64,000 nt of DNA from NCBI RefSeq assembly GCF_041886205.1, contig NZ_CP169031.1; one strand, written 5' to 3'. The notes beneath the pieces were generated by a model that worked only from the letters and a program-made list of their open reading frames with translations, made no database searches and was not told where the DNA came from. The DNA comes from Escherichia coli (GTDB lineage Bacteria > Pseudomonadota > Gammaproteobacteria > Enterobacterales > Enterobacteriaceae). Every line of letters begins with the position of its first letter. Position 1 is the first letter of the stretch. Both the position numbers and the translations under genes were made by a program. Positions 3,701-43,557 of the stretch are shown one piece after another.

Positions 3701-4140
3701 TTGGCTGGGGTGTATGCGTTCTTGCGTTAGCCTTAGCCGATCGCTATTTGCTAAAACGCAAGGACATCACGCATTTAGAACTTGGTGATGTGGAAATTAA
3801 ACCGGGTTTCATCCGGGTGCCGTTCAAATACCGGTCTAAATTCCCGTTTTTGCGCGGCGCAACGGTCAGATATTGGATCCGCGATGTTCAGAAGCCAACG
3901 ACAGTGATTGAAGGCGAACAACGTTGTCTGACGTCGGCTGAACAGGGCGAAAACAGTGAATGGTTGTACATACCCACTGAATATATGGGTAAAGGAGAAC
4001 GGCTGTGGCATTTCAACGTCATGGTTACGCATGGCGACTCGTTCATTAACCCGTTGTATCGGATTTTCCCTGTTACTCAGCAAATCCGCAGAAGTTACGT
4101 AATAAATCTCGCACAGGATGTGTCAGATGACGAAAAATAA
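3697..4140 (+). CDS. lydB: Antiholin-like protein (P1 LydB-like)
   Basis: 147 aa, start overlaps lydA stop (translational coupling); position matches P1 lydB. Confidence 0.6.
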   Translation: MIGWGVCVLALALADRYLLKRKDITHLELGDVEIKPGFIRVPFKYRSKFPFLRGATVRYWIRDVQKPTTVIEGEQRCLTSAEQGENSEWLYIPTEYMGKGERLWHFNVMVTHGDSFINPLYRIFPVTQQIRRSYVINLAQDVSDDEK

Positions 4141-26686: not shown

Positions 26687-27718
26687 CTAATTGCCATCTT
26701 CCAGCAGGCGCACCATTGCCCCTGTTTCACTATCCAGGTTACGGATATAGTTCATGACAATATTTACATTGGTCCAGCCACCAGCTTGCATGATCTCCGG
26801 TATTGAAACTCCAGCGCGGGCCATATCTCGCGCTGCTCCGACACGGGCACTGTGTCCAGACCAGGCCAGGTATCTCTGACCAGAGTCATCCTTAGCGCCG
26901 TAAATCAATCGATGAGTTGCTTCAAAAATCCCTTCCAGGGCGCGAGTTGATAGCTGGCTGGTGGCAGATGGCGCGGCAACACCATTTTTTCTGACCCGGC
27001 AAAACAGGTAGTTATTCGGATCATCAGCTACACCAGAGACAGAAATCCATCGCTCGACCAGTTTAGTTACCCCCAGGCTAAGTGCCTTCTCTACACCTGC
27101 GGTGCTAACCAGCGTTTTCGTTCTGCCAATATGGATTAACATTCTCCCACCGTCAGTACGTGAGATATCTTTAACCCTGATCCTGGCAATTTCTGCTATA
27201 CGTAGCAGGGTATTATAAGCAATCCCAAGAAATGCCAGATTACGTATATCCTGGCAGCGATCGCTATTTTCCATGAGTGAACGAACCTGGTCGAAATCAG
27301 TGCGTTCGAACGCCAATGCCTGTTTTGCACGTTCACCGGCATCAACGTTTTCTTTTCGAATCCGCCGCATGACCAGTGAAACAGCATTGCTGTCACTTGG
27401 TCGTGGCAGCCCGGACCGACGATGAAGCATGTTTAGCTGGCCCAAATGTTGCTGGATAGTTTTTACTGCCAGACCGCGCGCCTGAAGATATAGAAGATAA
27501 TCGCGAACATCTTCAGGTTCTGCGGGAAACCATTTCCGGTTATTCAACTTGCACCATGCCGCCCACGACCGGCAAACGGACAGAAGCATTTTCCAGGTAT
27601 GCTCAGAAAACGCCTGGCGATCCCTGAACATGTCCATCAGGTTCTTGCGAACCTCATCACTCGTTGCATCGACCGGTAATGCAGGCAAATTTTGGTGTAC
27701 GGTCAGTAAATTGGACAT
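26687..27718 (-). CDS. cre: Cre tyrosine recombinase
   Basis: 343 aa MSNLLTVHQNLPALPVDATSDEVRKNLMDMFRDRQAFSEHTWKMLLSVCRSWAAWCKLNNRKWFPAEPEDVRDYLLYLQARGLAVKTIQQHLGQLNMLHRRSGLPRPSDSNAVSLVMRRIRKENVDAGERAKQALAFERTDFDQVRSLMENSDRCQDIRNLAFLGIAYNTLLRIAEIARIRVKDISRTDGGRMLIHIGRTKTLVSTAGVEKALSLGVTKLVERWISVSGVADDPNNYLFCRVRKNGVAAPSATSQLSTRALEGIFEATHRLIYGAKDDSGQRYLAWSGHSARVGAARDMARAGVSIPEIMQAGGWTNVNIVMNYIRNLDSETGAMVRLLEDGN: essentially the Cre sequence as I know it (last residue N here vs D in my recollection). Confidence 0.97.
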   Translation of the reverse strand: MSNLLTVHQNLPALPVDATSDEVRKNLMDMFRDRQAFSEHTWKMLLSVCRSWAAWCKLNNRKWFPAEPEDVRDYLLYLQARGLAVKTIQQHLGQLNMLHRRSGLPRPSDSNAVSLVMRRIRKENVDAGERAKQALAFERTDFDQVRSLMENSDRCQDIRNLAFLGIAYNTLLRIAEIARIRVKDISRTDGGRMLIHIGRTKTLVSTAGVEKALSLGVTKLVERWISVSGVADDPNNYLFCRVRKNGVAAPSATSQLSTRALEGIFEATHRLIYGAKDDSGQRYLAWSGHSARVGAARDMARAGVSIPEIMQAGGWTNVNIVMNYIRNLDSETGAMVRLLEDGN

Positions 27719-27947: not shown

Positions 27948-28136
27948 TTTTCACCTCTGATTGATTGGTGGTGCTAAGTGCGCTACGCGAAATCTGGAGC
28001 ACTAACACTGCCAACTTTTCACAGATTTTACGTAGCGCAACCTTGATCAAATGATCAAGTGATCACTATTTGACCTGATAAGGTATTGAACTGTATGGAT
28101 TTACAGGTAAATTGATCATGTTCAATAACCCTTAAG

Positions 28137-28170
28137 ATAACTTCGTATAATGTATGCTATACGAAGTTAT
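28137..28170 (+). other. loxP recombination site
   Basis: Exact 34-bp ATAACTTCGTATA-ATGTATGC-TATACGAAGTTAT (13-bp inverted repeats flanking 8-bp spacer). Confidence 0.98.
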
Positions 28171-28871: not shown

Positions 28872-29723
28872 ATGATAAATTATGTCTACGGCGAACAACT
28901 GTACCAGGAGTTCGTCAGTTTCAGGGATCTCTTTCTAAAAAAAGCTGTTGCACGCGCCCAACACGTTGATGCCGCCAGCGACGGTCGTCCTGTTCGCCCG
29001 GTTGTCGTTCTGCCGTTCAAAGAAACGGACAGCATTCAGGCTGAAATTGATAAATGGACTTTAATGGCGCGGGAACTGGAACAGTACCCAGACCTCAATA
29101 TCCCAAAGACTATTTTATATCCAGTGCCTAACATCCTTCGCGGTGTGCGTAAGGTTACAACTTATCAGACAGAAGCTGTGAACAGCGTCAACATGACTGC
29201 TGGCCGCATTATTCATCTGATTGATAAGGACATTCGCATCCAGAAAAGCGCGGGGATCAATGAGCACAGTGCGAAATACATAGAGAACCTGGAAGCAACA
29301 AAAGAGCTAATGAAGCAGTACCCGGAGGATGAAAAATTCCGTATGCGCGTACACGGCTTTAGCGAAACAATGCTGCGCGTCCATTACATTTCCAGTAGCC
29401 CTAACTACAATGATGGTAAATCAGTTAGTTACCATGTGCCGCTATGTGGTGTGTTTATCTGCGATGAAACTCTCCGTGATGGAATCATCATCAACGGTGA
29501 ATTCGAGAAAGCAAAATTTAGCCTTTATGACTCTATAGAACCGATCATCTGCGACCGCTGGCCGCAGGCAAAAATATATCGCCTGGCAGATATTGAAAAT
29601 GTAAAAAAACAAATTGCCATCACTCGCGAAGAGAAAAAGGTCAAATCAGCCGCATCAGTTACGCGCAGCCGTAAAACTAAGAAGGGGCAGCCAGTAAACG
29701 ACAACCCCGAAAGCGCGCAATAG
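28872..29723 (+). CDS. c1: C1 repressor of lysogeny
   Basis: 283 aa MINYVYGEQLYQEFVSFRDLFLKKAVARAQ..., matching P1 C1 length and N-terminus as recalled; operators of the matching 17-bp type are scattered through the window. Confidence 0.9.
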   Translation: MINYVYGEQLYQEFVSFRDLFLKKAVARAQHVDAASDGRPVRPVVVLPFKETDSIQAEIDKWTLMARELEQYPDLNIPKTILYPVPNILRGVRKVTTYQTEAVNSVNMTAGRIIHLIDKDIRIQKSAGINEHSAKYIENLEATKELMKQYPEDEKFRMRVHGFSETMLRVHYISSSPNYNDGKSVSYHVPLCGVFICDETLRDGIIINGEFEKAKFSLYDSIEPIICDRWPQAKIYRLADIENVKKQIAITREEKKVKSAASVTRSRKTKKGQPVNDNPESAQ

Positions 29724-32510: not shown

Positions 32511-32963
32511 TCAGATACGTGCGGATGTGGCATTACCGTAATGACGGTGCTGACGGGCCACCTTATTGAAAAGTTGACGCGCCATTACCCAAGGCTGGTG
32601 CTCCCGGCGTTCCTTTTCGTCCTGCGTCATATAGAGTTCGTTCTGGAGTTTTTCATCAAACCGGCGCGGAGCGCGGCTACGGCGAAAGAATTCAGGATTC
32701 AGAGAGTGGATCTGAAATCTACGTGGGCGTGTACTGTCATCAATCAAAACAGACGAATACTTAGACACAGCGATAGCCTTTAAGCGCAGATAAACATCGC
32801 GCTTATCGACATCCAGATGCGGGTATTCCTTTTCAAGGATTGCTGCGAGTTCTTTCGCTGATAGAAGAGACTTAGTGCGGATCATGTAATCCGCAATCTC
32901 ATACGATGTTATTCGTGAGTGATTTATTTCCATGAAGTGGCGTCCCTGCCAGTTAAGTAACAT
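32511..32963 (-). CDS. lpa: Lpa-like late promoter activator
   Basis: 150-aa ORF (alternative ATG at 32933) upstream of pacA with a C1 operator-like site upstream; named by synteny. Confidence 0.5.
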   Translation of the reverse strand: MLLNWQGRHFMEINHSRITSYEIADYMIRTKSLLSAKELAAILEKEYPHLDVDKRDVYLRLKAIAVSKYSSVLIDDSTRPRRFQIHSLNPEFFRRSRAPRRFDEKLQNELYMTQDEKERREHQPWVMARQLFNKVARQHRHYGNATSARI

Positions 32964-33033
32964 CCTGTCACCGACTGATTAGCCCATGTCAACTAATCAA
33001 CGTGGAATATAATACCCTCTATTAAAGAAATAG

Positions 33034-33050
33034 CAATACATTAGAGCAAT
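33034..33050 (-). promoter_or_regulatory. C1 operator-like site upstream of lpa
   Basis: CAATACATTAGAGCAAT, 14/17 match. Confidence 0.5.
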
Positions 33051-33051
33051 T

Positions 33052-34086
33052 TTATCTAACGCTCGACGAGTGACTTGTGATAGCGCCGACTCCAAGCGCG
33101 TAATCAAAGAACAATCGTTGATGCATCGCCAGCCTACCGTGCGTCTTCTCCCAATTATCGCGGTCACGCTCAATATCACGCTGGCATGACTGGCACAGAG
33201 GAATTGCGTAAATGTCATGCGCGCATAATCGACTATGACGAACGATATAAGGCGTAATGTGAGCGCCAGCTCCACACCCACAGCATGGACGGGAAGCAAC
33301 AAAGTCCATGTACTCAGGTAATTTTAGCGATTGCAGTTTTGGTATTTTGAAATGCGCCATGCCATGGTCGGAGTCAACATCCACAGGGCATACTTTTGCA
33401 CGCATCGGCGCGGCGCGTTCTTCCATCATCTGAACATATGCTGTAGCGCGATCGTCATACGGGCGAATATCCGCCTCTTTCAGAGGTCCGCTATCCTGCG
33501 TTGCGGCTTTCATCTTATTTATTGATATACGGCAAACTTCTTCCGGCATCAGGTGCATCATGTTGCGCATGAAAGCCCACCAGCACAGTTCCTGAATACT
33601 TAAATCATGGCCATCTGAAAGCCCCATTTCCTGACGGGCGACATCCAGTATCCAGTTAACGCGATTATTATGCAGCGTTTCTTTCAGCTCATTAAAACCA
33701 CGCATCCGGTAATGGTTATCGTGATGCCAGCACAACAACACCGCGCTATTGTCTCGTTCTGCGTGGACAATATGGTTGTCACACCAGCTACGATCTGCGG
33801 CCTGGCATTGTCCCTCTTTCCTGCGCAACCACGCCACCAGCGCGTCAATTCCACCAATACGGCGAAACAGTTCATCGCTGTTAAAAAACGGCTGCAACGC
33901 CTCATTTGTTGCCATGGTTTGCTCGGTAACAACGAGGCCGTCTTCCATGTGCTCGATTAACTCACGCGGCACCGGCTCCATAATAAATTTACGGCCAGCC
34001 TCCACCAGCTTTCTGACCTCCTGATCCACTTTGAACGTGGCGAGGCCAAGCTCTTTCTGTACAAAGGGAGCAATTACGGCTTTCAC
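33052..34086 (-). CDS. pap: Cys/His-rich protein (P1 pap position)
   Basis: 344 aa with several Cys/His clusters ([21 protein letters not shown]); name by synteny only. Confidence 0.45.
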
Positions 34087-34113
34087 ATCACACCTTTCAT
34101 CACTGATTGGGCT

Positions 34114-34293
34114 TTATCTGCTGCCCGGCATTCTCTGTTTAAGCACAACCATTTCCTGACGGCATAACACAGCAATAGCGGTCCTGGCACCAATTTGCTT
34201 ACCAACCAGGTATTGCTTTACCTTGCGGCGACTCACGCCATCAAGAAGCATCTTTAACGCTTCACGGGACAATTTGTTGTATTTGCGTGCCAT
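34114..34293 (-). CDS. Small basic HTH-like protein translationally coupled to doc
   Basis: 59 aa (MARKYNKLSREALKMLLDGVSRRKVKQYLVGKQIG...); ATG 4 nt after doc stop with GGAG 7 nt upstream. Confidence 0.3.
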   Translation of the reverse strand: MARKYNKLSREALKMLLDGVSRRKVKQYLVGKQIGARTAIAVLCRQEMVVLKQRMPGSR

Positions 34294-34297
34294 TAAT

Positions 34298-34678
34298 CTA
34301 CTCCGCGGAACCATACAATCTACGTAACGTGTCGGCGACAGAAGATACAGATATCTCTCCGGTCGCAGCCCCTACGGTAAGGTCTGCCAGTTCAGGTGAA
34401 TCAAATACCTGCACCCCGTTACGGCGTAGAAATAACAGCGCACTGTTTAGCGCGGTACGCTTATTGGCATCATTGAATATATGCCCTCTCGCTGTAGCCA
34501 CCAGGTAGGTGGCGGAGACTTCGAAAAGGTCGGTGATCTCTTCGTAGGCAACTCTGGCCTGAACTCTCCCGATAATGGCCTCTGCCCTACCCGGATCTGA
34601 CATTCCCGGCAGGCCGCCGTAGCGGTTTATATTCGCATCATGAAGCGCAATAAGTTCTTCCGGTGATATATGCCTCAT
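34298..34678 (-). CDS. doc: Doc toxin (Fic-family kinase)
   Basis: 126 aa [39 protein letters not shown]...[13 protein letters not shown] (Fic-like motif); start overlaps phd stop. Confidence 0.9.
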
Positions 34679-34899
34679 TATCGGTTAACCAGTTCCTTGT
34701 TGGTGGAGTCCAGGGTGTCAAACAGGGATGCAAATTCAGCATCCAGCGCCGCTTTTTTGTAGGCTTCGAAAGTAGCCTTGCTGACAATTACTGCTGGCTC
34801 ACGGCCTCTGCGGGTGATTTCAACCTCTTCCCCGGCTTCAACATTGTTGAGCACTTCAGAAAGGTTGCCGCGCGCGGTACGGAAGTTAATGGATTGCAT
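34678..34899 (-). CDS. phd: Phd antitoxin
   Basis: 73 aa from ATG 34899: [56 protein letters not shown]... Confidence 0.9.
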
Positions 34900-34971
34900 A
34901 AACACCTCGTGTACTCATTATGTGTACACAATTATAAACTTCACAGGCATAAAGCACCAGCACTTTGCAGC

Positions 34972-35361
34972 TTAAATAACCGGACAATCATCAAATTCCC
35001 CACTTCGGGCATCATTGATGACATGAGTGATCACACCAAAAACAGCATTACTGCCCGTGTATCCATCGTCATCTACTGGTAACGCCTCTTTCTTCCCGGT
35101 GCTTAAATCCTCCAGGTGCTGGCGCGGATACTTCCTGTATCTCTTTATGCGATATTCACCCTCCATAGCGCACACAAGCAGAGAACCATCAACCGGAGTA
35201 AGCGAGGAATCAACCACCAGCAAAGCACCCTGCAATATTCCCTCACGGTGATGGCTATCAGCTGCCCGCATGAAGTAGGTTGCTGATGGATGCCTGATTA
35301 GTTGCTGATCAAGAGAAATTCGGCTTTCAACATAATCCGCCGCAGGAGAAGGAAAGCCCAT
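34972..35361 (-). CDS. humD: UmuD homologue (HumD-like)
   Basis: 129 aa; UmuD/LexA peptidase S24 C-terminal fold; LexA box 20 bp upstream. Confidence 0.8.
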   Translation of the reverse strand: MGFPSPAADYVESRISLDQQLIRHPSATYFMRAADSHHREGILQGALLVVDSSLTPVDGSLLVCAMEGEYRIKRYRKYPRQHLEDLSTGKKEALPVDDDGYTGSNAVFGVITHVINDARSGEFDDCPVI

Positions 35362-35380
35362 AGCGTTTTCACCTCAATAA

Positions 35381-35400
35381 TACTGTTAATTTATACAGTA
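35381..35400 (+). promoter_or_regulatory. LexA (SOS) box between humD and divergent ORF
   Basis: TACTGTTAATTTATACAGTA: perfect CTGT-N8-ACAG with palindromic flanks. Confidence 0.75.
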
Positions 35401-36715
35401 TACATTAAAGAGACACCTTTGGTGCAAACGCGTTACGTACATCAACCACCGCTGATGATTTTGTGCTCTTTGCTACTATTCATCACCGCGGGATCAGCGT
35501 AACCTCGTTGCCAATCAGTTAATAAGGAATTAGCTATGCCTAATCGCATTCCTCTCATCTCTTAACGATATCAACGATGCGTTATATGAATACTGTGAAA
35601 AAACGAGCATCACAGATGCACCTGATGCATTTGTCGAGCTACCGGTATATCTCCGCGACATCTATGCAATACGAACACCGCCCGTATCGGTGATTCACAT
35701 TGGCTATGTCCGCCTGTCCATCGAAGAAGATGAAGATCGTTATATCGTGCGCCACTATACATTGGACAGAAAAGAACTTCCTAATGAATGGAACATGAGT
35801 AATTTCTACAACGGTGAATATGGCTTAAAATCCGCTAATAATTTACGGTCATAATCTATACAGGCATGTATAACAACAACGAGCCTATTAGCTGTCAACA
35901 ACGTTATTTTCTCAAATAAGAAAAGGCACAAAACAAATTGTTTAAGGCCACAAATTGTGGCCTTAATGGAGGAGGGAGGCTTATTGGCTATGGCTAAAAA
36001 TCAAATTAGACACTTCATGTTGCTGTAGCTCATCTAGATCCGAGGCCACAAAACCTTTTCCGAAAAAATTCACAAGTAACTCACTAGCCGCATCATTATC
36101 ACCTATTACACGAAAGCCATACGGCAACGTCGCAAGTTGACGATGTAATCCTGCTGAGAAAGTCGAATCTAACAGCGCCCAGAATTCCCACAGCAGGATA
36201 ATACTCGCCTCTTAATACTGTATATATGTTGTTACGATATGTTTTTCTGTCTCTAAAAAAAGATGTTAATAGAATGCTAACCATTGAAGTGGATAAAAAT
36301 ATACAATTCCAACAAACGTTATCTTTAACAATTTTTTTCTTTGCGTTGACTTTCCCGGACACCTTGTCTGACCGAAGGTGCGCGAAAGCCACTTTTTCCT
36401 TCCTGAGTTATCCACAAAGTTATGCACTTGCAAGAGGGCCATTTTCTACATATTGTGGTGGCTAACAGATGAAATGAATGTAGATTAATTGAAGATAAGG
36501 AGAAAATTTGAGATGCAATCATGACGTTAATAGATATGGTCTGCATTACAGACCCCACCCGCATCAAGGAATTAGCCGTTCCCTGATGTTTTTCCGAAAA
36601 CATGTGCCGTAAGCTCACGTTAACGACTTTCATTCACCGAATCCAACTATATAGGGGTTGGGTTTCTACGTCAACGTGAGAGCACACAGCTTTACATTTG
36701 ACGAGGATTACCCTG

Positions 36716-36853
36716 ATGATTGTATTTTTTCAGTTTCTAAGTGCATTTTTAAATGCGCCTGTTCTTAGCCAAGTGCTGGCGATTGTCTTCATCGTGGTTC
36801 TGATATGGTTTTTCAAGTCAGTGATAAACAGAGGCGTGCGCTGGCTTATTTAA
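36716..36853 (+). CDS. Candidate small hydrophobic peptide (45 aa)
   Basis: MIVFFQFLSAFLNAPVLSQVLAIVFIVVLIWFFKSVINRGVRWLI; GAGGA 10 nt upstream; preceded by a 12-bp inverted repeat. Not in ORF track (<60 aa). Confidence 0.3.
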   Translation: MIVFFQFLSAFLNAPVLSQVLAIVFIVVLIWFFKSVINRGVRWLI

Positions 36854-37385
36854 TGTCGCGCTGAGATATTAATTCCCTTGCTGTTTAACCATTTTTTGTG
36901 TGTGCTGGTGAGCGTGTGAAGGCTCAATTTGTTGCCCACCAGTATTTACTATTTCTAAGCTCCACATTGTCACTTCCGCACAAACAACTTAGCGCGGAAT
37001 CAGTATTCGGCCCAAGATGTAAAAAGCCAACCTGCGTTATGGTTCGCATTTCCAAATAGTGTTCTGAACGCCCGTGCCGGGCGCGAGATGTGGATTAGCG
37101 TTCGCGCTATGCTGATATACGACTTTGGACTTTCCATATTGCTGACAGGCTTTGTCTGCGGTTTTTTGCAGGCTGTCCAGCCCATACCAGCCATCTGACT
37201 GGATGCTAACATTTTCGCCGTCATTGTATTGCACCATCGCACACCCAGACATAGCTAAAATCGCACCGACAATACCGCTTTTCCAAAAAGCTCTAATTAG
37301 GTCATTCGTTACCTAATGTCCGAACTGCTAAAGCATCTAAGTTGCTGTAGAATCACATCCAATTACATAAGCCTGAAATAAGTGG

Positions 37386-38948
37386 ATGAAAATGACAAGT
37401 ATTCAACAACGTGCAGAGCTTCATCGTCAAATCTGGCAAATTGCTAACGATGTCAGGGGTTCGGTCGATGGATGGGATTTTAAGCAATACGTTCTGGGCG
37501 CACTTTTCTACCGTTTTATCAGCGAAAATTTTTCCAGCCATATGGAAGCCGGTGATGACAGTATCTGTTATGCGAAACTGGATGACAGCGTAATTACTGA
37601 TGACATTAAAGACGATGCCATCAAAACTAAAGGCTACTTCATCTACCCCAGTCAGCTTTTCTGCAACGTAGCTGCGAAAGCAAATACCAATGACAGACTG
37701 AATGCAGATTTAAACAGCATCTTCGTTGCTATCGAAAGTTCTGCTTACGGTTATCCTTCAGAAGCTGACATCAAAGGTTTGTTTGCTGATTTCGATACCA
37801 CCAGTAACCGCTTGGGTAACACCGTTAAAGATAAAAATGCCCGCCTGGCTGCGGTTCTGAAAGGGGTTGAAGGGTTAAATCTGGGCAACTTTAACGAACA
37901 TCAGATTGACTTATTTGGCGATGCCTATGAGTTCCTGATTTCTAACTATGCGGCGAATGCCGGTAAGTCAGGCGGCGAGTTCTTTACACCGCAACACGTC
38001 TCTAAGCTGATTGCACAACTGGCTATGCACGGGCAGACCCACGTTAACAAAATCTACGACCCGGCAGCAGGTTCCGGTTCGCTGTTGTTGCAGGCTAAAA
38101 AGCAGTTTGATAACCATATCATCGAAGAAGGCTTTTTCGGTCAGGAAATCAACCATACGACCTATAACCTGGCGCGTATGAACATGTTTTTGCACAACAT
38201 CAACTACGACAAGTTTGATATCAGGCTGGGTAATACACTGACTGAGCCGCACTTCAGAGATGAAAAACCGTTTGATGCCATCGTTTCTAACCCGCCGTAT
38301 TCGGTGAAATGGATTGGCAGCGATGACCCGACGCTGATTAACGATGAACGTTTTGCCCCGGCTGGCGTTCTGGCCCCAAAATCCAAAGCTGACTTTGCGT
38401 TTGTATTACATGCGCTGAACTATCTTTCGGCCAAAGGTCGTGCTGCGATTGTCTGCTTCCCGGGTATTTTTTACCGTGGCGGCGCAGAGCAGAAAATCCG
38501 TCAGTATCTGGTTGACAATAACTATGTCGAAACCGTGATTTCACTGGCACCGAACCTGTTCTTTGGCACCACCATTGCAGTAAACATTCTGGTGCTGTCT
38601 AAACATAAAACGGATACCAAAGTTCAGTTTATTGACGCCAGCGAACTGTTCAAAAAAGAGACTAACAACAACATCCTTACCGATGCGCATATCAAACAGA
38701 TTATGCAGGTCTTTGACACCAAAGCAGATACTGACCATCTGGCGAAATCTGTGCCGTTTGAGACCGTGGCCGCCAATGGTTATAACTTGTCAGTTAGCAG
38801 CTATGTGGAAGCCAAAGATACCCGCGAAGTTGTAGATATCACTGAACTGAATGCCGAACTGAAAACCACCGTCAGCAAAATCGACCAGTTACGCCAAGAC
38901 ATTGATGTGATCGTGGCTAGAATTGAAGGCAGAGAGGTACAGGCATGA
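37386..38948 (+). CDS. hsdM: Type I restriction-modification methyltransferase subunit HsdM
   Basis: 520 aa; motif I ([12 protein letters not shown]) and N6-adenine catalytic motif NPPYS; N-terminal HsdM domain. Confidence 0.95.
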
Positions 38949-40153
38949 GCGAGCTGAGCTATCTGGAAAAACTGTTGGATGGGGTTGAGGTTGAGTGGGT
39001 AACATTGGGTTCTATGGCAGATATCGGTACTGGAAGCTCAAATCGTCAGGATGAAAGCGAAAATGGAATTTATCCATTCTATGTTCGCTCAAAGAATATC
39101 TTGAAGTCAGATACCTTTGAATTTGATGAGGTAGCAATAGTCATTCCTGGTGAAGGTGGAATTGGCGACATATTTCACTATGTTGAGGGGAAATATGCTC
39201 TACATCAAAGGGCGTATAGAATTCGTATCACAACTAATGCCGTAGACACGAAGTTTTTGTATTACTTCATGTCATCTAGCTTTAAGCAGTACATCTTGAC
39301 AAAAAGTGTGGGTGCTACCGCCATTTCGATAAGAAAACCCATGCTGGAAGGATTTAAAGTTCCCATTCCTAGCCCGGACAACCCGGAAAAGTCCCTTGCC
39401 ATCCAGTCTGAAATTGTTCGGATTCTGGATAAATTTACTGCAATTACCGCTGAGCTTACCGCTGAGCTTACTATGCGTAAAAAACAGTACAACTACTATC
39501 GCGACCAGTTGTTGAGTTTTAAAGAGGGTGAGGTTGAGTGGAAGACTTTGGGGGAAATTGGGAATTTTACATATGGATATGCAGCCAAAGCCATGGACTC
39601 AGGAGATGCCCGTTTCGTGAGAATTACTGACATAAATAAAGACGGGAAGCTATCGAAAGAAAACCCAATGTACGTTGAATTAAATGAGGAAAATGAGAAA
39701 TATACCTTAGAAAAAAATGATTTACTCATGGCAAGGACTGGTGCAACCTTTGGTAAAACAATGATTTTTGAAGAAGATTATCCAGCAGTATACGCTGGTT
39801 TTTTAATAAAGTTGAACCTAAATGAAACGATTATTAATGCCAAATATTACTGGCACTTTGCACAAAGTGATTTTTTTTGGGAACAGGCTAATAAATTAGT
39901 ATCTGGTGGTGGGCAACCACAGTTTAATGCTAATGCACTGAAACAAGTCAGAGTACCTATTCCATACCCATCTCACCCTCAAAAATCTTTAGACGAACAG
40001 GGGCGTATTGTGGATATTCTAGATAAGTTTGATGCAATCGCAGCTTCCATCACTGAAGGTCTTCCGCGTGAAATCGAGTTACGCCAAAAACAATACGAAT
40101 ACTACCGTGATTTACTGTTCAGTTTCCCAAAACCTGAAACTGTCAGTAATTAA
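38945..40153 (+). CDS. hsdS: Type I R-M specificity subunit HsdS
   Basis: 402 aa; two target-recognition domains separated by conserved central region containing TAELTAELT and conserved distal region ([16 protein letters not shown]); start overlaps hsdM stop. Confidence 0.9.
39446..39469 (+). repeat. Tandem 12-bp repeat (ACCGCTGAGCTT x2) encoding TAEL-TAEL in HsdS central conserved region
   Basis: Two perfect copies in tandem. Confidence 0.9.
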
Positions 40154-40274
40154 TTGACCATTGCTACCGACCGGGCCACCTTAACACCCGGTCTGTATAT
40201 AGACTATTTTTTACGCGCCGGAAGTCACTCTTAACGCCCTTCCGGCCCTTGCCAGGCGGCACAAAGGATGCGCT

Positions 40275-43200
40275 ATGACTCATCAGACACACACTATTGC
40301 TGAATCCAATAACTTTATCGTCCTTGATAAGTACATCAAAGCTGAGCCAACAGGCGACAGCTACCAGAGCGAATCGGACCTGGAACGTGAACTGATTCAG
40401 GACCTGCGGAATCAGGGCTATGAATTTATATCCGTAAAATCTCAGTCGGCTATGCTGTCCAATGTTCGGGAACAGCTTCAGAGCCTCAATGGTGTGGTGT
40501 TTAATGACAGCGAGTGGCGGCGTTTCACGGAGCAGTATCTGGACAACCCGAGCGATGGCATTCTGGATAAGACCCGTAAAATCCATATCGACTATATTTG
40601 CGACTTTATTTTTGATGACGAGCGACTTGAGAACATCTATTTGATAGATAAAAAGAATCTCATGCGCAATAAGGTGCAGATTATCCAGCAGTTTGAACAG
40701 ACGGGTTCTCATGCTAACCGTTATGACGTCACGCTCCTGGTTAATGGCTTACCACTGGTACAAATCGAACTGAAAAAGCGCGGCGTGGCGATTCGTGAGG
40801 CTTTCAACCAGATACATCGTTACAGTAAAGAGAGTTTTAACAGCGAAAATTCCCTGTTTAAGTATCTGCAACTGTTTATCATTTCTAACGGCACAGATAC
40901 CCGTTACTTTGCCAACACCACAAAGCGCGATAAAAACAGTTTTGATTTCACCATGAACTGGGCGAAATCAGACAACACGCTGATTAAAGACCTCAAAGAC
41001 TTTACCGCTACCTTTTTCCAGAAACATACTCTGCTGAATGTTCTGGTGAACTACAGCGTGTTTGACAGTAGTCAGACACTACTGGTGATGCGACCGTACC
41101 AGATTGCCGCCACCGAGCGCATTCTGTGGAAAATTAAGAGCTCCTTTACAGCGAAGAACTGGTCAAAACCGGAAAGCGGTGGGTATATCTGGCACACTAC
41201 CGGTTCTGGTAAAACCCTCACCAGCTTTAAAGCCGCGCGTCTGGCAACAGAGCTGGACTTTATTGATAAAGTCTTCTTCGTGGTCGACAGGAAAGACCTC
41301 GATTACCAGACCATGAAGGAATATCAGCGTTTTTCGCCAGATAGTGTTAACGGTTCGGAAAATACCGCAGGCCTGAAACGAAATCTGGATAAGGACGATA
41401 ACAAAATTATTGTCACCACTATTCAGAAACTCAATAACCTGATGAAAGCAGAAAGCGACTTGCCTGTATACAATCAGCAAGTGGTGTTTATATTTGATGA
41501 ATGCCACCGCAGCCAGTTTGGAGAAGCGCAGAAAAACCTGAAGAAGAAATTTAAACGCTATTATCAATTTGGTTTTACCGGCACCCCTATTTTCCTGGAA
41601 AACGCCTTAGGCTCAGAAACAACAGCCAGCGTATTTGGTCGTGAATTGCATTCGTATGTAATTACCGATGCGATTCGTGACGAAAAAGTGCTCAAGTTCA
41701 AGGTGGACTACAACGATGTGCGGCCACAGTTTAAGTCTTTAGAGACAGAAACTGACGAGAAAAAACTGAGTGCGGCTGAAAATCAGCAGGCGTTTCTTCA
41801 TCCCATGCGTATACAGGAAATTACGCAATATATTCTGAATAATTTCCGCCAGAAAACCCACCGCACCTTCCCTGGCTCAAAAGGTTTTAATGCTATGTTG
41901 GCAGTGAGCAGCGTGGATGCTGCAAAAGCCTATTACGCGACGTTTAAACGGTTACAAGAGGAAGCAGCTAATAAATCGGCTACCTATAAACCGCTGCGTG
42001 TTGCGACAATCTTCTCCTTTGCTGCCAATGAAGAACAAAATGCCATTGGTGAAATTTCCGATGAAACTTTTGATACCAGCGCAATGGACAGCAGTGCTAA
42101 AGAGTTTCTTGATGCTGCAATTCGTGAGTATAACAGCTATTTTAAAACTAACTTCAGCACCGACAGTAACGGTTTTCAGAACTACTATCGTGATTTAGCC
42201 CAACGGGTTAAAAATCAGGATATCGATCTGTTAATTGTCGTGGGGATGTTTTTAACCGGCTTCGACGCTCCAACATTGAACACGCTATTCGTCGATAAAA
42301 ACTTGCGTTTTCACGGCCTGATGCAGGCATTTTCCCGCACCAACCGCATTTATGACGCTACTAAAACCTTCGGTAATATCGTCACTTTCCGCGATCTGGA
42401 ACGCTCAACCATCGATGCCATAACGCTGTTTGGTGACAAAAACACCAAAAATGTAGTGTTAGAAAAGAGTTATGCAGAGTATATGGAAGGCTTTACTGAT
42501 GCCGCTACTGGTGAAGCTAAGCGCGGCTTTATGGCGGTAGTTGCAGAACTGGAACAACGGTTCCCTGACCCAGCCAGTATTGAAAGTGAAAAAGAGAAGA
42601 AAGACTTCGTTAAACTGTTTGGTGAATACCTGCGTACCGAGAACATCCTGCAAAACTATGATGAATTTGCCACGCTGAAAGCCCTGCAACAAATCGATCT
42701 TAGCGATCCTGTTGCAGTAGAAAAATTCAAAGCAGAACATTATGTGGATGATGAAAAGCTCGCTGAATTGCAAACAATTCGTCTCCCTGCTGATCGCAAG
42801 ATTCAGGATTATCGTTCTGCCTATAACGATATTCGCGACTGGCAGCGCCGTGAGAAAGAAGCTGAGAAAAAAGAGAAATCAACCACTGACTGGGATGACG
42901 TAGTTTTTGAGGTCGATTTGTTGAAGTCTCAGGAAATAAACCTGGATTATATCCTTGGACTGATTTTCGAACACAACAGACAAAATAAAGGCAAGGGCGA
43001 AATGATCGAAGAGGTCAAACGCTTAATTCGTTCAAGCCTGGGGAACCGTGCTAAAGAGGGCCTGGTGGTCGACTTTATTCAGCAAACGAACCTGGATGAC
43101 TTACCGGACAAAGCCAGCATCATTGACGCATTCTTTACGTTTGCTCAACGCGAACAGCAACGTGAAGCAGAAGCATTGATAAAAGAAGAAAATCTCAATG

Positions 43201-43391
43201 AAGAGGCGGCGAAACGCTATATTCGCACGTCTTTAAAACGCGAATACGCCACCGAAAATGGCACAGAATTAAACGAAACATTACCAAAACTTAGTCCGTT
43301 GAATCCGCAATATAAAACGAAAAAACAGGCAGTTTTCCAGAAAATCGTCTCGTTTATTGAGAAGTTTAAAGGCGTAGGCGGAAAAATATAG
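40275..43391 (+). CDS. hsdR: Type I R-M restriction endonuclease/translocase subunit HsdR
   Basis: 1038 aa; PD-(D/E)xK nuclease N-terminal region, SF2 helicase motifs (GSGKT Walker A; DECHRS motif II). Confidence 0.95.
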
Positions 43392-43408
43392 CCCAATTCG
43401 TGTTTTTC

Positions 43409-43436
43409 TTGCGGGTTCTTAATTAAACCCGCAAGA
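43409..43436. other. 10-bp inverted repeat hairpin downstream of hsdR
   Basis: CTTGCGGGTT-cttaatta-AACCCGCAAG; no clear U-tract on either strand. Confidence 0.5.
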
Positions 43437-43470
43437 GCTCGTGGGGTTCCAAATGGCTAATATACTCCCC

Positions 43471-43557
43471 TTACCCATGCGCGACGATGCCGCCAAAAGT
43501 GATAGAGAACAGCCAGAAATAGATCGCGGCCATAATGATTTTGAATGCCGTGTTCAT
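43471..43557 (-). CDS. Candidate 28-aa hydrophobic peptide
   Basis: MNTAFKIIMAAIYFWLFSITFGGIVAHG with RBS CAGGAG 8 nt upstream of ATG; operator-like site ~85 bp upstream. Not in ORF track. Confidence 0.3.
   Translation of the reverse strand: MNTAFKIIMAAIYFWLFSITFGGIVAHG

Follow-up and report, generated by a model that had tools for sequence, protein, structure and literature searches.

Among P1-like phage-plasmids, hot-lxr-humD is a recognised variable region, and humD is described as a LexA-regulated SOS gene (PMC9603915). The P1 record (NC_005856.1) holds a LexA protein_bind feature at 87545-87564 with the note 'LexA binding site in the regulatory region of lxr and humD', and labels lxr 'LexA regulated function'. 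The P7 record (NC_050152.1) holds a corresponding feature at 94404-94423, noted as 'regulation of humD expression'; the P7 counterpart of lxr is upf94.2 (194 aa), which abuts upf93.6 (118 aa) in the same frame. In this study, we analysed the LexA box upstream of humD and the divergent open frames beside it in a 64,000-nt stretch of Escherichia coli DNA (contig NZ_CP169031.1 of assembly GCF_041886205.1; hereafter the window), which is a P1/P7-like phage-plasmid. Our analysis suggested, with a probability of about 0.93, that the locus combines the known LexA operator of humD with an lxr/upf93.6 pair that was destroyed by a single 623-bp deletion and is carried in this form as a heritable allele.

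According to the proposed mechanism, the region would be the divergent humD-lxr control region of a P1/P7-type phage-plasmid, in which LexA at 35381-35400 would repress humD, the gene of a pre-processed UmuD' homologue, in the undamaged cell, and the SOS response would release it. One illegitimate deletion of 623 bp would have placed upf93.6 codon 21 directly behind lxr codon 7, out of frame. Translation from the preserved lxr Shine-Dalgarno sequence and ATG would then yield only the nonapeptide MPNRIPLIS, and the long open frame that follows would be an untranslatable relic. The deletion itself would be a heritable allele in a minority lineage of P1/P7-type plasmids.

The LexA box and humD

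The LexA (SOS) operator TACTGTTAATTTATACAGTA at 35381-35400 is the sole exact match to TACTG-N10-CAGTA on either strand of the window. Dinucleotide-preserving shuffles of the window gave a chance expectation of 0.01 matches on average, with any match in one of 100 shuffles, and tolerating one mismatch to the pattern brought no extra site in the window. The same 20 bases also fit CTGT-N8-ACAG exactly with a spacer made up of A and T only, and agree with the full 20-bp consensus TACTG(TA)5CAGTA at 17 of 20 positions. The preliminary description of this DNA had reported a perfect LexA box here, 20 bp upstream of humD, and had read it as a sign of SOS control. The box was borne out by the search, and the distance was essentially right, the measured gap to the humD ATG being 19 nt (35362-35380), with the box 8 nt upstream of the humD Shine-Dalgarno sequence. 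Its reading as the LexA site of humD is supported by orthology, in that the equivalent 20-mer is the annotated LexA binding site of humD and lxr in P1 and P7. The two versions share 19 of 20 bases, both TACTGT/ACAGTA arms and the same placement relative to the humD and lxr ATG codons. The difference lies in the spacer, where A at 35388 in the window stands against C in P1, P7 and two E. coli plasmids, so that the spacer of the window is fully A/T.

Across the window, P1, P7, RCS47, D6 and the two E. coli plasmids, we observed the spacer variants TTAATTTATA, TTCATTTATA and TTTATTCATA between invariant TACTG and CAGTA arms. In RCS47 and D6, hot stands in the place of lxr beside humD and the box is retained (TACTGTTTATTCATACAGTA), which demonstrated that the box travels with humD; BLAST homology of these two replicons to the window ends about 10 bp past the box. 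Constant arms, a variable spacer and co-inheritance with humD form the pattern that would be expected of a functional operator belonging to humD. Binding of LexA and SOS induction at the box of the window may likewise be expected, given the P1 annotation and the literature.

The gene downstream of the box was found intact. humD (34972-35361, minus strand) encodes a UmuD'-like accessory subunit of translesion polymerase V of 129 aa, identical to P1 HumD at 128 of 129 residues (99%). The protein matched the NCBIfam HumD equivalog NF051876 over residues 1-129 of 129 with 220.2 bits (cut-off 120), and also matched Peptidase_S24 and the polymerase V subunit family.

In addition, the upstream part of the window holds another LexA-type site at 28089-28108, AACTGTATGGATTTACAGGT (core CTGT-N8-ACAG), between cre (26687-27718, minus strand) and loxP (28137-28170). 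Judged by its position beside loxP, without alignment, this site appears equivalent to the P1 LexA site annotated at nt 46-65, which overlaps promoter P2coi. Together with the humD box, the window therefore appears to have both LexA operators of the P1 stretches examined.

A deletion-fusion remnant of two genes

On the divergent side of the box, BLAST aligned the window in two pieces with P7, SJ46 and many plasmids, and those records hold about 623 extra bases between the pieces. Left homology to P7 stops at 35556 and right homology restarts at 35557, which corresponds to P7 locus position 3781. The junction was thus placed at 35556/35557, with 623 bp missing relative to P7 (L001 3158-3780 = NC_050152.1 93625-94247). 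The missing bases comprise upf94.2 codons 8-194 and upf93.6 codons 1-20, and as 623 is not divisible by three, what remains of upf93.6 lies in +1 phase. A search for direct repeats or microhomology at the deletion endpoints in P7 found none; a repeat-mediated event was rejected on this ground, and the lesion was classed as an illegitimate deletion.

The remnant consists of the two outer ends of the pair. The 5' remnant of lxr/upf94.2 (35525-35556, plus strand) retains the Shine-Dalgarno sequence AAGGAA at 35525-35530, an ATG at 35536-35538 and the first 7 codons (MPNRIPL). The P1 and P7 records annotate this ATG as the start of lxr and upf94.2, respectively, and the window matches both phages base for base through 35556. 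Owing to the out-of-frame join, the ATG opens a nine-codon chimeric open reading frame (ORF) for MPNRIPLIS (35536-35565, plus strand), which reads ATG CCT AAT CGC ATT CCT CTC ATC TCT TAA, with its stop at 35563-35565. The 3' remnant of upf93.6 (35557-35854, plus strand) has no start and keeps codons 21-118 and the stop, with 99% identity to residues 21-118 of P7 Upf93.6. It is read in a long open frame of 106 codons (35534-35851; stop at 35852-35854; translation LNDINDALYEY...) in +1 phase relative to the lxr ATG. The first ATG, GTG or TTG in this frame is a GTG at 35690, which is not preceded by a Shine-Dalgarno sequence. Complete members of the lxr/upf94.2 family (PHROG 6164) are ORFs of about 190 aa, of which the start and 7 codons are left here, with a stop after 9 codons; complete members of the upf93.6 family (PHROG 5797) are ORFs of about 113-120 aa with their own start, and here the deletion has removed the start along with codons 1-20.

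The divergent region is a deletion-fusion remnant of two genes; neither a frameshift in lxr nor an unusual start codon explains it. The preliminary description had placed an ATG at 35537, opening a nine-codon frame that runs into an open frame of about 95 codons in another phase, and had proposed either a frameshifted pseudogene, possibly of the lxr equivalent and with an indel near homopolymer tracts, or a gene with a non-canonical start. The ATG is present, at 35536, and opens nine codons as described; the second frame was also confirmed, at a length of 106 codons. A pseudogene carrying the lxr start was correctly recognised, but the long frame itself is upf93.6 codons 21-118 and not lxr. 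A small indel or homopolymer frameshift is refuted by the comparison with P7, where the difference is a clean 623-bp gap and not 1-2 bp, and re-sequencing would therefore not restore a gene. The non-canonical start was rejected as well, the frame being the 3' five-sixths of a known ORF without its start and 20 conserved codons.

A related possibility is that 35534-35851 is nevertheless a live gene, expressed through a non-canonical start, a +1 frameshift or re-initiation to give an SOS-controlled, N-terminally truncated Upf93.6. The lxr Shine-Dalgarno sequence and ATG are preserved, and the remnant, lying in +1 phase, runs through 106 codons without an internal stop and shows no decay so far compared with intact upf93.6. 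This openness, however, is fully accounted for by recent descent from a real ORF, and initiation within the frame would meet the lack of start codons before 35690 given above. The prfB mechanism of programmed +1 frameshifting uses CUU UGA C, and tRNA-Ser cannot re-pair from UCU to CUU; the sequence here is CTC ATC TCT TAA C, where UCU UAA C does not provide a slippery shift site and no internal Shine-Dalgarno sequence lies just upstream. Furthermore, the product would miss the conserved N-terminal 20 residues (MAKIxYxRDxGNYLE), and the PGAP annotation calls no gene over the junction in the eight genomes that carry it. We regard a live gene as very unlikely. No structured RNA was matched in an Rfam scan at E<=1 covering 34000-37500.

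The polarity of the event was also considered. Comparison of two states alone gives no direction, and the short form might in principle be ancestral, with the P7/SJ46 form arising by a 623-bp insertion, although nothing specific favours this. With the additional 623 bp, two ORFs are complete, and independent homologues of each exist over the full length; that an insertion should have completed two conserved genes so exactly is not credible. The long form was therefore taken as ancestral, since both genes have full-length homologues at 50-60% identity in other replicons, and we give an insertion practically no chance.

An inherited allele and the humD promoter

The 80-bp junction was observed at 100% identity (80/80) in 8 of 5,426 complete E. 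coli genomes, namely pTHO-010-4, EC12, EC15, EC18, XH987, XH989, LR882977 and E1624. The records concerned (pTHO-010-4 NZ_AP022544.1, pXH989-OQX NZ_CP102677.1, NZ_CP060916/21/35, NZ_CP102674, NZ_LR882977 and NZ_JBXYCD010000004) belong to several separate accession series, and the two that were inspected come from Tokyo (pTHO-010-4) and Hangzhou (pXH989-OQX). Recurrence of the same junction in eight genomes argues for an inherited allele and not a sequencing error. At least 7 PLSDB plasmids cover a 701-bp query around the junction as one piece, like the deletion allele; in the phage collection, 0 of 22 matching records do so, and none of these has the short form. The intact pair is present in about 79 of the 87 E. 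coli genomes that have both flanks, and also in P7, SJ46 and three 'P1' records.

The prevalence of the long form is what would favour an assembly or sequencing artefact, in which the real replicon would have intact upf94.2 and upf93.6. Such an artefact would have to recur base for base in the eight complete genomes and their separate accession series, and in the PLSDB plasmids that span the query in a single piece. In addition, the junction records differ from the window by single-nucleotide polymorphisms (SNPs) and in neighbouring cargo, so they are not copies of one record. pTHO-010-4 and pXH989-OQX are collinear with the window over 32809-36910, but differ from it by 12 SNPs in the 701 bp around the junction and are without the type I restriction-modification island that the window has from 36910. 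An artefact is thus extremely improbable, and the deletion is best read as a heritable allele. Around the junction, the best matches of the window are intact-type plasmids at 98.9%, compared with 98.3% for deletion-type plasmids, and the two aligned plasmids with the same deletion carry C at the equivalent of 35388 where the window has A. Both the A at 35388 and the closer match to intact-type plasmids hint at possible recombination between alleles.

Several points weigh against the reading of a known LexA operator beside a destroyed gene pair. First, the window allele departs from P1 and P7 inside the operator at 35388, though at a spacer base and not in an arm. Second, that the remnant is not expressed is a prediction from its sequence. 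Third, the promoter of humD is not easily placed. A stricter sigma-70 scan found no promoter near the LexA box. In the P1 record, a sigma-70 promoter labelled 'predicted PhumD' lies within lxr (L002 3440-3466), some 440 bp upstream of the box, and the stretch that holds it is deleted in the window. If that prediction is right, humD expression would be altered here rather than simply controlled by LexA. Either the prediction is doubtful or humD expression is altered.

A lenient scan offered the candidate humD promoter TTGCAC-19 nt-TATACT (35397-35427, minus strand), the -10 hexamer of which overlaps the LexA box, and found nothing on the plus strand for lxr. The candidate agrees with the consensus at 8 of 12 positions, its 19-nt spacer is too long, and P1 has TGTACT at the -10 hexamer, so that it is weak. 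The window and 8 other plasmids have intact humD and the LexA box despite deletion of the PhumD stretch, and the deletion alleles may serve as a natural test of where the humD promoter lies. It is conceivable, but rather doubtful, that they reveal humD to be driven by a compact promoter overlapping the box (candidate 35427-35397), with the P1 PhumD annotation being wrong, or else represent a more exotic variant, with an SOS-induced nonapeptide or an active truncated Upf93.6.

Lost genes, setting and comparison with known systems

Neither Lxr/Upf94.2 nor Upf93.6 had a significant match in Pfam, NCBIfam or PADLOC, a PDB sequence search was also negative, and PHROGs 6164 and 5797 are 'unknown function' families only. 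Homologues of the N-terminal ~130 aa of Lxr were found at 50-60% identity under the source names Klebsiella, Pseudomonas, Xanthomonas, Burkholderia and Bradyrhizobium, one of them explicitly on a plasmid by its source name. They share the invariant motifs WWD.P, CLNGG.WDR and RPD, and conservation of this N-terminal domain extends across Proteobacteria. For Upf93.6, homologues of 112-114 aa are about 55% identical and possess the 20 N-terminal residues that the window has lost. Eight loci with two distant Lxr homologues, taken from their source names as Klebsiella-type and Pseudomonas-type replicons, had no CTG-N10-CAG within 350 bp upstream, and LexA regulation is therefore not a trait of the family. 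For P1, lxr was non-essential in a CRISPR interference screen (PMC10695390), and the existence of a lineage that circulates in nature without lxr is in line with this result.

Public assemblies also contain several further forms of upf93.6 that are truncated, frameshifted or fused (P0004, P0012, P0013, P0014 and P0018). In P0013, the C-terminus of Upf93.6 is fused to a frame antisense to humD, indicating a separate and larger deletion. Decay seems to be a general tendency of the humD-lxr-upf93.6 stretch. For annotation, 35536-35854 is best labelled a deletion remnant of lxr/upf94.2 and upf93.6, neither a gene nor a frameshift to be corrected.

Two further features lie on the far side of the remnant. 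An inverted repeat, TTAAGGCCACAAATTGTGGCCTTAA (35942-35966; 11 pairs, 3-nt loop), stands 3' of the upf93.6 remnant; the scan gave it a terminator-like score for the minus strand, and it probably ends transcription between two convergent units. Positions 36109-36116 are the empty site of the IS903 copy carried by P7: both IS903 flanks of P7 align there with an 8-bp overlap, which looks like a target-site duplication.

The gene order leading up to the LexA box is pacB, pacA, lpa, pdcB, pdcA, doc (34298-34678), phd (34678-34905) and humD, all on the minus strand, and from pacB to humD the window runs collinear with P1 and P7, with 97.7-98.1% identity. Further upstream, a 283-aa ORF (28872-29723) occupies the position of P1 c1; it was assigned by length and position and has no Pfam match. 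Beyond the remnant, a complete type I restriction-modification system spans 36910-43472, with hsdM at 37386-38948, hsdS at 38945-40153 and hsdR at 40275-43391, and HsdR has an EcoR124-type C-terminus. This island stands in place of the pmgV/pmgU-side segment of pTHO-010-4 and pXH989-OQX: collinearity with both plasmids stops at 36910 and restarts at 43472 with pXH989-OQX.

Taken as a whole, a humD LexA box beside a divergent pseudogene is already known and ordinary, with nothing new in it, and the P1 genome paper is said to have annotated the LexA operator of humD already. The arrangement resembles that of E. coli umuDC, where a UmuD-family gene likewise follows directly on an SOS operator of the CTGT-N8-ACAG class. 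In contrast to umuDC, the humD locus has no adjacent umuC partner, and HumD with its 129 aa corresponds to the already-cleaved UmuD' form. Compared with the upf94.2-upf93.6 pair of P7, the window shares the upf94.2 Shine-Dalgarno sequence, ATG and codons 1-7 as well as upf93.6 codons 21-118 and the stop, at 98-99% identity, but the ends are joined out of frame and neither protein can be made.
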